DNA of 64,000 bases from an uncultured Candidatus Rokubacteria bacterium (GTDB taxonomy: Bacteria; Methylomirabilota; Methylomirabilia; Rokubacteriales; DASRDR01). Shown here piece after piece: positions 2 to 8,281 of this stretch. Every line of letters starts with the position of its first letter. The stretch's first letter is position 1. The stretch covers positions 128,001-192,000 of the forward strand of contig CAWGVS010000010.1 of the NCBI GenBank assembly GCA_963826115.1, written 5' to 3'. Below the pieces are notes generated by a model, which made no database searches, was not told where the DNA came from, and worked only from the letters and a program-made list of their open reading frames with translations. Position numbers and translations under genes: made by a program.

Positions 2-292
2 GATCTCGTGGTCTACGGCACCGGGGCCCCGGAAGGCCACGTGTCCTTCATCGACGAGATCGGCGCCCACGCCGGCCCGTCGCCGGAGGAGCTCCATACC
101 TTCGTCGTCGCACCCGCGTCGGCGCGCATGCCGGAGTCGATCGACCACCCGCTCCAGCTGTACCCGCTGTTCCTCGCCTACCAGTTCGGCGGCGCGGAGT
201 CCGAGGTCGAGCCGGTCGAGGACGATGACAAGCTGTCGGCGCGGCGACACGGCCACGGGTCGCCGCCCTGGCGGTGCGCGGTCTCGGCTTGA
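2..292 (+). CDS. 5'-truncated CDS, possibly the C-terminus of an alkaline phosphatase/nucleotide pyrophosphatase-family protein
   Basis: Open frame from the window edge: DLVVYG...SFIDEIGAHAGPSPEELHTFVVAP; the GxHxG motif resembles the AP-superfamily C-terminal metal site. Confidence 0.45.
   Translation, partial: DLVVYGTGAPEGHVSFIDEIGAHAGPSPEELHTFVVAPASARMPESIDHPLQLYPLFLAYQFGGAESEVEPVEDDDKLSARRHGHGSPPWRCAVSA
226..257. promoter_or_regulatory. Putative enhancer (UAS) palindrome, copy 1
   Basis: TGACA-AGC-TGTCG-GCGCGG-CGACA-CGG-CCACG; shares core TGTCGNCGCGRCGACAC with 6494 and 8170; centre about 100 bp upstream of the sigma54 site at 341. Confidence 0.5.
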
Positions 293-340
293 TTCTGGCC
301 GCGTTCGAGCCGATCCGTACCTACTCGACGCGGGCGCGAC

Positions 341-356
341 TGGCATGCCACTCGCA
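341..356 (+). promoter_or_regulatory. Putative sigma54 -24/-12 promoter
   Basis: TGGCATGCCACTCGCA, GG-N10-GC, 60 bp upstream of ATG 417. Confidence 0.55.
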
Positions 357-416
357 CACCAGTAGACAACGAAGCGCGCGGCTCGAGCGAGCTGGCGTGC
401 GAGAAAGGCGGACCAG

Positions 417-803
417 ATGACACGCACGCTGCTCGGCGTCACGTTCGCGATCGGCCTCGTGGCGAGCCTGCCCGGCCCGACCCACGCCGGCGGCGCCCTG
501 ATCGAGACCACGGCCCCGCTCGCGGATCGCTCCGAAGAGTCCGTCAAGGCGGCGGTCGTCGCGGCGATCGACAAGGCGATGCGCGGCGCCGCGGCCATGG
601 GCTTCGCGTGGGTCCAGCTCCGCGACGCGCAGGTGTCGGAGGGTGAGGTGGCGATCCAGATCCTGGCGACCGACGAGAAGCCAGGAGCCGTGGACGGGGT
701 CCAGCCGGATCCCGCTCCGGACGCGAGCCCGGGCGACGACGCGCTCTCGGGCGAGACGGACCGGGGGCCGGCGATTCCGGAAGGCGCGCGGCTCCACATC
801 TGA
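417..803 (+). CDS. Hypothetical exported protein
   Basis: 128 aa, signal-peptide-like N-terminus, purine-rich RBS-like region, acidic Pro-rich tail. Confidence 0.7.
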   Translation: MTRTLLGVTFAIGLVASLPGPTHAGGALIETTAPLADRSEESVKAAVVAAIDKAMRGAAAMGFAWVQLRDAQVSEGEVAIQILATDEKPGAVDGVQPDPAPDASPGDDALSGETDRGPAIPEGARLHI

Positions 804-833
804 GCGACGCGCGCGGCGCCGCCCCGGCCGCGG

Positions 834-2127
834 TCAGACCTCGATGGTCTGCCCTTCCCGGGCGGCGAAGCACCAGAGGGTGGCGCCGCGCTCGGCGATG
901 AGCTCCTTCGCCAGGACCTCCATGCCGGTCACCACGTCGTCGGAGTGCATCGGGTCGTGGTGGAAGAGCGCGAGCGCCTTCACGCCGGCCTGGAGCGCGA
1001 CCTCGACGGTGGCGCTCAGGGCGGAGTGCCCCCAGCCGACCTTCGACGGGTATTCGAGGTCCGTGTACTGCGCCTCGCCGATGTAGAGGTCGGCGCCCTC
1101 GACGAAGCCCACGAAGGCGTCGTCCAGCACGCGGCCGAAATGCTTGCCGGCCTGGGCCTCGCGGCTGCCGGCCTCGAGCGTCGCCCGGTAGGGCTCGTGG
1201 TCCGTCGCATAGACGACCGTCTTACCGGCCCGCTCCACGCGGTAGGCGAGCGCCATGCCCGGGTGGTTCAGGTAGGTCGCCGAGATGGTGGCGTCGCCCA
1301 CCCGGAAGGGCTCGCCGCGGTACTCGTGGACCTGGATGGACGAGACCAGGTCGCCGAGCGAGACCGGGAAGTAGTCCGAGTGCATCTGACCGCTGAGGAC
1401 GCTCTTCAGCGAGTTCCCCTGTCCCGTCGATCCGTAGATGTGGAGCGTCGTGCCGGGCGAGTAGGCGGGCACGAAGAACGGGAACCCCTGGATGTGGTCC
1501 CAGTGCGTGTGGCTGATGAAGAGGTGGAGGGTGAGCGCCCGCGCCCCGGAACTGCTGGGCCAGGGCGAGCCCGAGCTCCCGGATCCCCGTGCCGGCGTCG
1601 AAGATCAGGATGTCCTGGCCGGACCGGATCTCGACGCACGACGTGTTGCCCCCGTAGAGGGTCGTGGCGGGACCGGGGGCGGCGATCGATCCCCGGGTGC
1701 CCCAGAAGGTGACCCCGAGCCGGGGCGCGGCCCGGTCGGCGCGCAGGCGCTCCACGCGGGCCACCAGCTCGTCGGGATAGAAGGGCTTGACCACGTAGTC
1801 GTCGGCGCCCATCGACTTCGCCCGCTCGATGTCCGGCTTGTACGCCTTCGCCGAGATCATCACGACGACCGCGCGCGTCAGATCGGGGTGCGCGCGCAGG
1901 CTCCGGAGGACCTCGAAGCCGTGCATGTCGTCCATCATGATGTCGCAGAGGATGACGGCGGGGCGGTGAGCGTGCGCCAAGGCGACGCCGGCGGCCCCCT
2001 GCTGGGCGGTGAGGACCGTGAAGCCCCGGCCCTTGAACACGAACGAGAGGAGGTCGCAGAGACCCTCGTCGTTGTCGATGACGAGAAGGGTCTCGCCGGC
2101 CGCGGTCTTCGGTCCGCCCACGGTCAT
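834..2127 (-). CDS. Response-regulator receiver fused to MBL-fold metallohydrolase (phosphodiesterase-like); one frameshift near 1545
   Basis: REC: VIDND, LCDIMM, KPF. MBL: FWGTRGS...YGGNTSCVEI, FDAGTG, then in another frame ISHTHWDHIQGFPFF, LNHPG, YATDHE, WGHS, LFHHDP. Confidence 0.85.
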
Positions 2128-2366
2128 GGGCCGGCGACTCGGCTCGGGCAGGGAGGGGCCGACGGGTCCGACGAGCGCAGGCGAGGCCGCCCGGCGGCGG
2201 TCACGCCGACCGGCCGGCGGTCGCCGCCGTCACGGGCTAGGACCCGAACGGGCCGCATGAAGGCATCGCCGTCCTTCCCTGGCATCCCGATGTCGGGACA
2301 CTAGCACGTCGGGCTGCCGGGAGGCGAGAGGTTGTCGGCGGCAGCCGGTGGGAGCGGGCGTGGGCG

Positions 2367-6644: not shown

Positions 6645-6699
6645 CCGACACCCTGGTATGCGCAATGAGCGGATCGTGGACATTCAGGGAGGCGTGAGC

Positions 6700-7383
6700 A
6701 TGACGACTGAGTTCCGTACCCTCATCACCGTGGCGGCGCTGGCGGCCCTCGTCGGCACGGCCGATGCCGGTTCGGCGCCCGCGCCGAAGACCGTGGCGGC
6801 GACGTCGGCCAAGGCGACGGAGCCCATCAAGGACACGAAGCGGTTCGCCGAGAACGCCGGCCTCTCGCGGGCGAGCTCGGTGATCGGAAGCAGCGTGAAG
6901 GATCTGTCCGGCAAGGACGCCGGAAAGGTCGAAGACCTCCTGCTCGACTACCGCGGACACGTCGGCTACGCCGTGGTGTCGTTCGGCGGGTTCCTGGGCA
7001 TCGGCGACAAGCTGTACGCGGTGCCGTGGGACGCCGTGATCGTGGATCAAGAGAAGCGGACGGTCTACCTCGACGTGAAGAAGGAAGCACTCGAGCACGC
7101 CCCGAGCTTCTCGTCCGACAAGTGGCCCGAGCAGAACGATCGCACGTGGGGCCAGGCAGTCAAGAAGGCCTGGAGCGATGCCTCGATCACCGCTTCGGTC
7201 AAGACGAAGCTGGCGGGCACGGCGCCCGCCACGCTCCTGAAGGTCGACGTCGACACGACCAACGGGATCGTGCAGCTGAACGGCACGGTCGACAGCGACA
7301 AGACGCGCCAGCGCGCGACCGAGCTGGCCCGTCAGGTCGACGGGGTGCGCCGCGTGGTGAACAACCTCAGGGTGCAGAGCTAG
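6700..7383 (+). CDS. Exported PRC-barrel + BON domain protein
   Basis: GGAGG RBS; signal peptide; RASSVIGSSV...GKVEDLLLD...YAVVSFGGFLGIGDKLYAVPW (PRC); DASITASVKTKL...VDVDTTNGIVQLNGTV...VDGVRRVVNNL (BON). Confidence 0.9.
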   Translation: MTTEFRTLITVAALAALVGTADAGSAPAPKTVAATSAKATEPIKDTKRFAENAGLSRASSVIGSSVKDLSGKDAGKVEDLLLDYRGHVGYAVVSFGGFLGIGDKLYAVPWDAVIVDQEKRTVYLDVKKEALEHAPSFSSDKWPEQNDRTWGQAVKKAWSDASITASVKTKLAGTAPATLLKVDVDTTNGIVQLNGTVDSDKTRQRATELARQVDGVRRVVNNLRVQS

Positions 7384-7496
7384 CGCTCGCATCTCGAGGG
7401 GGCTCGTCTCGCGGCCTCGCGGAGCCCGGGAGCGCCGGCTTGGCGCCGCCCGGGCTCCGTCCGTCGACCGCATCACCGAACCGCAAGGAGGGTCTC

Positions 7497-8144
7497 GTGG
7501 CGAAGAACGCCGGTTCCAGCGCGCCGAAAGCCTACCGCCCGCGTGAGTTCGATCTCGCGGGACTTGCAGGCATCTCCGACGCCCAGATCGAGGAGCACCT
7601 CGCGCTCTACGCGGGATACGTGAAGCAGGTGAACGCCTTGAACCAGGGGCTGGCCGAGCTGCGCGGTCGCGGCCAGGCGTCGAGCAAGAGCCCGGAGTTC
7701 GCCGAGCTCACGCGCCGGCTCGGCTTCGAGTACAACGGCATGATCCTGCACGAGTACTACTTCGGCAACCTGCGCGCCGCCGCGGACCCTGCGCCGCCAG
7801 GGCGGTCGGGCCTGTCGGAGGCGCTCGCCGGCTCGTTCGGGTCCGTCGAGCACTGGCGGACGGACTTCCAGGCGATCGGCGGGATGCGAGGGGTTGGCTG
7901 GGCGGTCCTCTTCCAGGATCCGGTCACCGAGCGCCTGACCAATCACTGGATCTCGCTGCACCAGGACGGCGTGCCCGCGGGATTCAAGCCGCTCCTGGTG
8001 ATGGACGTCTGGGAGCACGCGTACATGCGCGACTACAAGGCGACCGAGCGCGACCGGTACATCGAGGCGTTCTTCCGGAACATCGACTGGTCCGCGGTCG
8101 AGACGCGGCTCCAGGACGAGCGCGCCGTCCGGCCCGCGGCCTGA
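7497..8144 (+). CDS. Fe/Mn superoxide dismutase family protein (ChrC-like)
   Basis: AAGGAGG RBS, GTG start; EHLALYAGYV, NGMILHEYYF, RGVGWA, DVWEHAY metal ligands. Confidence 0.9.
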   Translation: MAKNAGSSAPKAYRPREFDLAGLAGISDAQIEEHLALYAGYVKQVNALNQGLAELRGRGQASSKSPEFAELTRRLGFEYNGMILHEYYFGNLRAAADPAPPGRSGLSEALAGSFGSVEHWRTDFQAIGGMRGVGWAVLFQDPVTERLTNHWISLHQDGVPAGFKPLLVMDVWEHAYMRDYKATERDRYIEAFFRNIDWSAVETRLQDERAVRPAA

Positions 8145-8169
8145 GCGGTCGTCATGCTGTCCGGCGTCC

Positions 8170-8201
8170 CGTCACGCTGTCGTCGCGACGACACCGTGGC
8201 G
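8170..8201. promoter_or_regulatory. Putative enhancer (UAS) palindrome, copy 3
   Basis: CGTCACGCTGTCGTCGCGACGACACCGTGGCG; central 16 bp is a perfect palindrome; extra sub-site CGTCA-TGC-TGTCC at 8150. Confidence 0.65.
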
Positions 8202-8265
8202 AGGACGACCGAGAGGAACACCCGGCCTGGCGGGCGTTTCAGCGTCACGGGCCACGGGATCGACC

Positions 8266-8281
8266 CGGCACGCGACTTGCC
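8266..8281 (+). promoter_or_regulatory. Putative sigma54 promoter for the small-protein cluster
   Basis: CGGCACGCGACTTGCC, GG-N10-GC. Confidence 0.7.

Follow-up and report, generated by a model that had tools for sequence, protein, structure and literature searches.

What is a 32-bp sequence with dyad symmetry doing, three times over, some 80 to 120 bp from promoters that are all of one kind? The DNA that raises the question is a stretch of 64,000 nucleotides (assembly GCA_963826115.1, contig CAWGVS010000010.1, positions 128,001 to 192,000 of the forward strand; hereafter, the window) from an uncultured bacterium of the Candidatus Rokubacteria/Methylomirabilota lineage, and the promoters are of the -24/-12 type that belongs to sigma-54. 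Chance, as an origin of the dyad, is excluded. We argue from comparison of sequences that the dyad is quite probably an enhancer, that is, the upstream activator sequence (UAS) of one sigma-54-dependent bacterial enhancer-binding protein (bEBP) of Rokubacteria, because it is the sole conserved upstream element, lies at the right distance, is found in both orientations and is absent from unrelated phyla.

The sigma-54 holoenzyme opens DNA only with the help of an AAA+ activator, which is usually bound at a dyad 80-150 bp upstream. In the mechanism that we propose, an activator dimer (or two dimers) would bind the inner TGTCG/CGACA and outer CGTCAC/GTGACG half-sites of the 32-bp element; once bound, the activator would assemble its AAA+ ring and loop to the RNA polymerase-sigma-54 complex at a -24/-12 promoter about 80-135 bp away, and ATP hydrolysis would then open the promoter. 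Three sites in the window would in this manner drive four promoters, with one site common to two divergent promoters. The binding by a bEBP, the existence of a single regulator, the inducing signal and the co-transcription of the operons are all things that we infer.

The dyad and the promoters beside it

Along the window, the sites and their predicted promoters are arranged as follows.

226..257: UAS-A, the 32-bp element TGACAAGC TGTCGGCGCGGCGACA CGGCCACG (TGACAAGCTGTCGGCGCGGCGACACGGCCACG), within the last codons of an upstream phosphodiesterase-like gene
341..356, + strand: -24/-12 promoter TGGCATGCCACTCGCA (match string TGGCATgccacTCGC), with the centre of UAS-A 100.5 bp upstream of its GG
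6403..6418, - strand: -24/-12 promoter TGGTATAGAAGTTGCC, leading into treZ (match string TGGTATagaagTTGC, 6404-6418), with the centre of UAS-B 92.5 bp upstream
6494..6525: UAS-B, CGCCACCGTGTCGCCGCGACGACACCGTGACG, 38.4 bits, common to two divergent promoters
6629..6644, + strand: -24/-12 promoter TGGCACCCGGCTTGCT (match string TGGCACccggcTTGC), with the centre of UAS-B 120.5 bp upstream
8170..8201: UAS-C, CGTCACGCTGTCGTCGCGACGACACCGTGGCG, 39.9 bits, symmetric at 14/16 positions
8266..8281, + strand: -24/-12 promoter CGGCACGCGACTTGCC (match string CGGCACgcgacTTGC), with the centre of UAS-C 81.5 bp upstream

An earlier reading of the window (the original prediction) had placed three 32-bp copies at 226, 6494 and 8170, and these coordinates stand; the sequences that it attached to them had been given in another order (6494, 8170, 226). 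All three copies contain TGTCGNCGCGRCGACAC, and the core TGTCGNCGCGNCGACA has three exact matches in the 64 kb, at 234, 6502 and 8178, whereas 100 dinucleotide-preserving shuffles have a mean of 0.01 and none of the 100 reaches 3. (Once two mismatches are allowed, the core pattern is at chance, with 4 found in the window and 2.25 expected.) The conserved element is CGtCACGnTGTCG-N6-CGACAnCGTGaCG. The prediction had also made a central CGCG part of the shared core, and here only half of the idea survives: the inner TGTCG and CGACA hold, but the CGCG is not kept in relatives.

Those relatives were reached through the protein of the cluster that joins a PRC-barrel to a BON domain (PRC-BON), which has 370 homologues at E <=0.001, the best 120 of the 370 being 57-100% identical (the 100% entry is the window's own protein). 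A profile search of genome contigs with an alignment of 27 listed PRC-BON homologues gave 36 loci, L001 to L036, of which L001-L011 come from Candidatus Rokubacteria, Rokuibacteriota or Methylomirabilota (L003 is from an uncultured bacterium) and the 25 others, L012-L036, from other phyla. Within the window and L001-L011, which together make 267,330 bp, TGTCG-N6-CGACA occurs 23 times; 60 Markov-1 simulations of an equal amount of DNA gave a mean of 0.62 and a maximum of 4. In the window and in Rokubacteria DNA alike, then, the motif is far more frequent than in a composition-matched background, and there are 0 sites in the 25 loci from other phyla. The spacer is just as strict: 23 sites have N6, one each has N5, N7 or N9, and none has N2-4, N8 or N10.

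Where do the sites lie? For 22 of the 23, a correctly oriented match to the -24/-12 regular expression is found at 40-220 bp, whereas among 20,000 positions drawn at random from this DNA, only 768 (3.8%) have one. A symmetrised 32-bp position weight matrix (PWM) built from the TGTCG-N6-CGACA sites says the same thing, with 27 sites of at least 20 bits, 26 of them with a promoter partner, over a null of about 1 site of at least 15 bits per 267 kb. The matrix recovers one-mismatch cores that the regular expression missed in L004, L006 and L011, along with weaker ones in L008 and L010; it finds 0 sites of at least 20 bits in window positions 9000-64000. The positional link between dyad and promoter that had been claimed for the window thus extends to its relatives. 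The partnerless site, L002:2907, has an alignment gap exactly over the -24/-12 box of its orthologues (one metagenome-assembled genome, or MAG, holds the cluster twice, as L001 and again as L002). At L002 2907-3080, the promoter stretch is missing, yet the downstream secreted-protein gene is intact. One of the spacing variants, in L003, has a 5-bp spacer and lies upstream of the PRC-BON gene, with TGGCACcctgcTTGC 109 bp further on.

The promoters themselves are less remarkable than their positions. The four in the window have 0-2 mismatches to TGGCAC-N5-TTGC (the one at 6629 has none), all match the regular expression (.GG[CT]A[CT]N5T[TC]GC.), and all lie upstream of gene starts and are oriented toward them, with about 30-65 nt from the predicted transcription start to the start codon; they are conserved at orthologous positions. 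Because the loose sigma-54 pattern by itself is at background in the window (40 found and 39 expected at <=2 mismatches), it is the positional pairing, and not the frequency of promoters, that is enriched. Among 11 window matches to the strict expression, these 4 lie 81.5-120.5 bp from dyad centres in the correct orientation, in keeping with the GG/GC promoters at 80-120 bp that had been predicted, whereas arithmetic from those counts gives an expectation of about 0.09 such pairs by chance. A scan of window 1-9100 for sigma-70 promoter-like sites found 0.

Taking the window and its relatives together, the distance from the centre of a UAS to the GG is mostly 81-134 bp; of 36 UAS-promoter pairs, 32 have distances of 68.5-158.5 bp, and the 4 exceptions are at 44.5-59.5 bp. 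The DNA in between is 19-38% A+T in the main loci and holds no AT-rich stretch of the kind bound by integration host factor (IHF). A GAATC/GATTC midway between site and promoter was considered as an IHF-like site and dropped, since only 9 of the 36 pairs have it.

The sites fall into about four positional classes: class A before the small secreted protein, class B between treZ and PRC-BON, class C before the lipoprotein/DUF1328 operon, and class D, seen in L001 and L002, ahead of the genes for a 92-aa protein and a DedA-family protein. A further site in L001 adjoins an AI-2E-family transporter gene. When the class C sequences (8) are aligned, every invariant column belongs to one of two blocks, namely the dyad or the promoter block CGGCACGC..CTTGCCC (invariant in 8/8), and the ~75 bp between them are unconserved. 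The class B alignment (4 sequences) has three islands, which are the leftward treZ promoter GGCAACTTCyrTACCA (kept in 4/4), the dyad and the rightward TGGCAy...TTGCT box. In class A (6 sequences), it is again just the dyad and the -24/-12 box that are conserved: UAS-A is kept in L004, L005, L006, L011 and L002, and the promoter of 341, CTGGCAyG..CTCGCAC, is kept in 5 of the 6, L002 being without the stretch. The motif is conserved upstream of orthologues in other Rokubacteria MAGs, and in all three alignments the dyad and the promoter are the sole conserved islands.

Four relatives (L004 9306-9791, L006 9388-9828, L007 5028-5531 and L011 ~9393-9764) carry an inserted gene, for a single-domain receiver, between treZ and PRC-BON, and there each flanking promoter has a dyad of its own; in the loci without it (the window, L001, L002 and L005), a single dyad serves both divergent promoters. 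In class C, the distance from dyad to GG is 81.5 bp in the window as against 90.5-94.5 bp in eight relatives, a difference of about one helical turn.

The element itself, once its sites are symmetrised, reads CGtCACGn-TGTCG-yCGCGr-CGACA-nCGTGaCG. Since the inner pentamers define the set of sites, their invariance is partly by construction; nonetheless, they are very strongly kept in the PWM matches that have one core mismatch. The outer CGTCAC/GTGACG arms carry 0.6-1.2 bits per position and the central six bases 0.2-0.55 bits, which is so little that the CGCG must be a feature of the window genome and not of the motif. The inner TGTCG/CGACA is symmetric in 25-27 of 27 sites and the outer arms in 13-24 of 27, depending on position. 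Symmetry also differs by class: of the 16 positions, class C sites have 12-16 symmetric (L001:11464 is a perfect 32-bp palindrome, 16/16) and class A sites 7-11, and UAS-A, at 25.5 bits and 8/16 symmetric positions, is the weakest of the three window copies. Each arm contains two GTC-centred units 8 bp apart; with two such units per arm, the element could hold two dimers.

The genes of the cluster and what they may be for

The genes around the sites, as far as the window holds them, are these.

2-292: 3' end of the phosphodiesterase-like gene (orthologues match Pfam Phosphodiest)
417..803, + strand: small secreted protein, 128 aa, with a signal-peptide-like N-terminus
834..2127, - strand: REC-MBL, a response-regulator receiver joined to a metallo-beta-lactamase-fold domain, without a DNA-binding domain
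2367..4440, - strand: archaeal-type glycogen debranching enzyme (GDE_N, GDE_C), in several frames, upper boundary approximate
4441..6361, - strand: TreZ-like malto-oligosyltrehalose trehalohydrolase (CBM48 and alpha-amylase), in several frames, boundaries approximate
6700..7383, + strand: PRC-barrel and BON protein with an OsmY-like C-terminus and a signal peptide
7497..8144, + strand: Fe/Mn superoxide-dismutase (SOD)-like protein, without a promoter match of its own
8356..8544, + strand: small lipoprotein, with an in-frame TGA at 8413-8415, at the lipobox position
8614..8790, + strand: DUF1328 small membrane protein
8805..8888, + strand: hydrophobic peptide, 27 aa, conserved in 8 relatives

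The targets had been named beforehand as treZ, a debranching enzyme, BON, DUF1328 and, possibly, the SOD gene, and Pfam and NCBIfam confirm each identity. In L004, the orthologue of the debranching enzyme scores 398.9 bits on TIGR01561 (cut-off 364), and that of TreZ scores 601 bits on TIGR02402 (cut-off 538.8). The small secreted protein has as its only family match a weak one to Dodecin, below the cut-off; its orthologues have 51-70% identity in L002, L004, L005, L006 and L011, with a degraded match of 38% in the frameshift-rich L001. The target operons would be the secreted protein alone, treZ-GDE-REC-MBL (leftward, with REC-MBL as its last gene), PRC-BON-SOD-like, and lipoprotein-DUF1328-peptide. 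The SOD-like gene is probably co-transcribed with PRC-BON, and the order of these two genes is kept in L004, L005, L007 and L011.

In the window, treZ, the debranching-enzyme gene and REC-MBL (834-6423) are broken over several frames, REC-MBL by a frameshift near 1550. The orthologues of all three are intact in L004, L005, L006 and L011 (that of REC-MBL in L002 as well). Because several of these MAGs look frameshift-rich (L001, from a similar MAG series, is likewise poor in long open reading frames), we read the breaks as probably indels of a long-read assembly rather than as marks of pseudogenes. The TGA in the lipoprotein gene is due to an error of sequencing or to a nonsense mutation of recent date: the window reads ...LLA*CDQG... 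at the lipobox, and L001, L002 and L005 have Gly at the position of the TGA (...LTGC...). At the far end of the window, 61908-63768 encodes more proteins of the oxidative-stress type, namely an AhpC/TSA peroxiredoxin, one protein with a Redoxin domain and another that is OsmC-like, and has no dyad copy.

What would a cell do with such a set? Its products would supply trehalose from glycogen, proteins for the envelope and membrane, and oxidative defence, and our best guess, by analogy, is that the cluster serves against stress of an osmotic or desiccation type, because its gene set matches two regulons described elsewhere, that of EcfG in Sphingomonas melonis and that of OrrA in Anabaena. In S. 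melonis Fr1 (PMC6599016), TreY-MalQ-TreZ-GlgX and a PRC-barrel protein are EcfG-dependent; there, too, a trehalose cluster with TreZ and a debranching enzyme is regulated along with a PRC-barrel protein and with small proteins that are secreted or hypothetical. The means of control differ, being an ECF sigma factor, GGAAC...GTT promoters and a PhyR-NepR partner switch, without sigma-54 or an enhancer. The dehydration/salt regulon of OrrA, a response regulator of Anabaena PCC 7120 (PMC9804601), includes, as dehydration genes, mth/mts (TreZ/TreY), the PRC-barrel avaK genes and defences against reactive oxygen; that organism is of another phylum, its regulon is not reported there as sigma-54-dependent, and the binding site is different or unknown. 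A DUF1328 gene is listed as induced in soil (PMC10667640). By gene content, then, the targets overlap established stress regulons (TreZ, the debranching enzyme and the PRC-barrel; BON/OsmY-like and DUF1328).

The cluster also encodes signalling proteins. A receiver-MBL protein, a single receiver domain and, in relatives, a histidine kinase that is part of the treZ operon are all encoded inside the regulon, and since the kinase and receivers are found there, they suggest feedback on the signalling pathway.

One could go much further and propose that the general stress response of Rokubacteria runs on sigma-54, with one bEBP, fed by the kinase and receivers of the regulon, in place of RpoS, SigB or EcfG, and with the dyad marking genes of desiccation and osmoprotection genome-wide. 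We hold this tentatively and consider it doubtful. The regulon as we see it is a cluster of four or five operons, all of the sites fall within one such cluster of ~8-16 kb, and, because they are confined to it, a genome-wide "general" regulon is not established; the confinement counts against the larger idea. Would it be better to suppose that the sites and promoters are real and that the regulon is a narrow local programme with no bearing on stress, such as a passage from glycogen to trehalose storage or a step in dormancy or in making something like a cyst? The absence of sites from the remaining 56 kb of the window would fit, sigma-54 regulons are typically dedicated to one function, and kinase and receiver proteins are encoded in the cluster itself. 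We nevertheless think this unlikely, for the targets are functionally mixed (BON, DUF1328, the SOD-like protein, the AI-2E-family transporter and DedA-family protein of L001, and small secreted or membrane proteins), and in Sphingomonas and Anabaena it is stress regulators that govern this same mix together.

Enhancer, operator or hairpin

Enhancers of the NtrC family (those of the NtrC, DctD, ZraR and NifA types) are established elements of sigma-54 promoters, and the dyad resembles them in lying ~80-150 bp upstream of TGGCAC-N5-TTGC, in either orientation, in being able to serve two divergent promoters, and in being conserved as a site, while the spacer DNA drifts. It differs from them in that each promoter has a single composite element of 32 bp where they have at least two distinct dimer sites, that there is no AT-rich IHF-like stretch, and that the gene for the activator is not beside the targets. 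The likeness to NifA sites, whose consensus is TGT-N10-ACA, is worth a closer look: the inner core TGTCG-N6-CGACA is formally TGT-N10-ACA and lies at a similar distance from a sigma-54 promoter. We rejected the identity all the same, since neither the window nor the loci hold nif genes or a GAF-AAA-HTH protein, and since the 32-bp element has, in addition, the conserved outer CGTCAC/GTGACG arms. The likeness is one of shape only.

Might the dyad instead be the operator of a conventional dimeric factor, a repressor or co-regulator and not an AAA+ activator, with the sigma-54 activator binding elsewhere or without any DNA site? A dyad of 16-32 bp would suit many helix-turn-helix dimers, no bEBP gene adjoins the sites, and each promoter has a single site. 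On the other side, a sigma-54 promoter does not normally work without an enhancer, and nothing but the dyad offers itself as one; the alignments show no other conserved element either between the sites and promoters or upstream of them. A position 80-135 bp upstream and the sharing of a site by divergent promoters are, moreover, typical of activator sites and not of operators, and the scan of the first 9,100 positions of the window found no sigma-70 promoter-like sites. We regard an operator as quite improbable. That the palindrome acts as a structure in RNA or DNA (a hairpin at the end of a transcript, a terminator of the upstream gene or a REP-like, that is, repetitive extragenic palindromic, repeat) we think very improbable indeed. 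In its favour, UAS-C lies 26 bp past the stop codon of the SOD-like gene, with an RNA fold of -35.1 kcal/mol (z = -3.0), and class C has near-perfect palindromes and a perfect one. Against it, class A sites are poorly symmetric, the dyad plays no part in the fold around 226 (z = -0.5), and the fold around 6494 has a z of only -0.9. The inner arms are kept in sequence and show little covariation, and it is the loop that varies. The dyads are not followed by a T-tract, and no terminator-like site is found at them; in class B, the genes on either side of the site point away from it, and no gene ends ahead of it. The strict link to -24/-12 boxes, finally, would be left unexplained.

The reading of the dyad as an enhancer is not without difficulties of its own, and, besides the confinement to one cluster, the following weigh against it. 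The 23-27 sites are not independent, coming as they do from syntenic loci and about four positional classes. Paralogues of PRC-BON elsewhere have degenerate sites (L008 and L010) or none (L009). For many bEBPs, tandem sites are the rule, whereas each promoter here has one composite 32-bp site. Neither the window nor the loci yielded a cognate activator, and no bEBP gene lies beside the dyad sites. Nor is rpoN in the 64-kb window, insofar as the open reading frames scanned include no match to the Sigma54 core or DNA-binding domain. The one bEBP that the window does encode makes the sigma-54 machinery something to be expected.

42925-44313: window bEBP, with a receiver domain, Sigma54_activat (6.3e-66; loop GAFTSA), an AAA lid and HTH_8

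This protein is unlikely to be the regulator of the dyad, because it adjoins a sigma-54-type promoter of its own that has a different inverted repeat, and it, too, counts among the difficulties. Its gene is part of a second, separate sigma-54 unit and is divergent from the promoter TGGCATcccccTTGC (42690-42704, - strand), which leads into a di-haem oxidoreductase-like gene (41237-42850), with the inverted repeat GTTCTCA-N4-TGAGAAC at 42798-42815, ~104 bp upstream of that promoter. The repeat was read by eye, and a repeat search of the same stretch returned nothing at its settings. Probably, it is this promoter at 42690-42704 that GTTCTCA-N4-TGAGAAC serves. No histidine kinase gene is adjacent to the activator gene at 42925-44313.

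The same fate, and the same weight on the wrong side, befalls the bEBPs near PRC-BON paralogues in L003 and L008, which we rejected as a conserved candidate because they are just 41% identical to each other and thus not orthologous. The one in L003 (5412-7000) has its sigma-54-contact loop changed to GARLGA and is preceded by TGGCATcgaccCTGCA, which resembles a -24/-12 site, together with several palindromes of the TGCAC type; it may be an autoregulated or a degenerate activator.

Beyond Rokubacteria, in L018 and L021 (loci of Pseudomonadota MAGs), a stretch at ~8270-11540 has the sigma-54-type promoter TGGCACagggcTTGC before a BON gene, with DUF1328 1.3 kb downstream. Unlike the arrangement around the Rokubacteria dyad, the gene of a bEBP is divergent and beside the promoter, and the enhancer, unrelated to that dyad, is made up of a pair of TGCAAGnTGCA-type repeats with an AT-rich stretch after them. 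We seem to have here a separate, independent instance of sigma-54 driving BON and DUF1328 genes, so that such control would not be confined to Rokubacteria. Two further loci, L012 (~2330-4914, Binatia) and L019 (~7138-10225, Acidiferrales), encode a bEBP 48% identical to that of the window, followed by the sigma-54-like promoters TGGCGCggcatTTGC and TGGCTCgacatTTGC and, further on, by a gene for a BON-domain lipoprotein; we have set these bEBPs beside BON genes aside as a different system.

What the dyad means for Rokubacteria

How much of this is new? A bEBP enhancer with a -24/-12 promoter is a textbook kind of element. The motif CGTCACGnTGTCG-N6-CGACAnCGTGACG was not found in a literature search that left subscription journals and regulon databases outside its reach, and a bacterial paper that matched on the arms of the motif (PMC7962211) has them only in primers. 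Searches found no paper on Rokubacteria together with sigma-54 or RpoN, and among the papers listed for sigma-54 with BON, trehalose or desiccation, nothing on point.

Rokubacteria abound in soil but have no cultured representative, and for such organisms, the dyad is a handle on sigma-54 regulation that can be searched for by computer. A PWM of the dyad combined with the -24/-12 box could define the full regulon across hundreds of MAGs, and the same scan could point to the cognate activator through co-occurrence or autoregulation. The dyad also makes a prediction, in that it names genes that Rokubacteria would be expected to turn on in response to drying or salt.

If the regulon stays local, what we have described is, for a new phylum, a clean and well-conserved case of divergent sigma-54 promoters with an enhancer in common. 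If it proves to be genome-wide, sigma-54 would fill the role in general stress that is held elsewhere by alternative factors of the sigma-70 family, and an abundant, uncultured phylum of the soil would have a general stress architecture that is mechanistically different, namely ATP-dependent and all-or-none.

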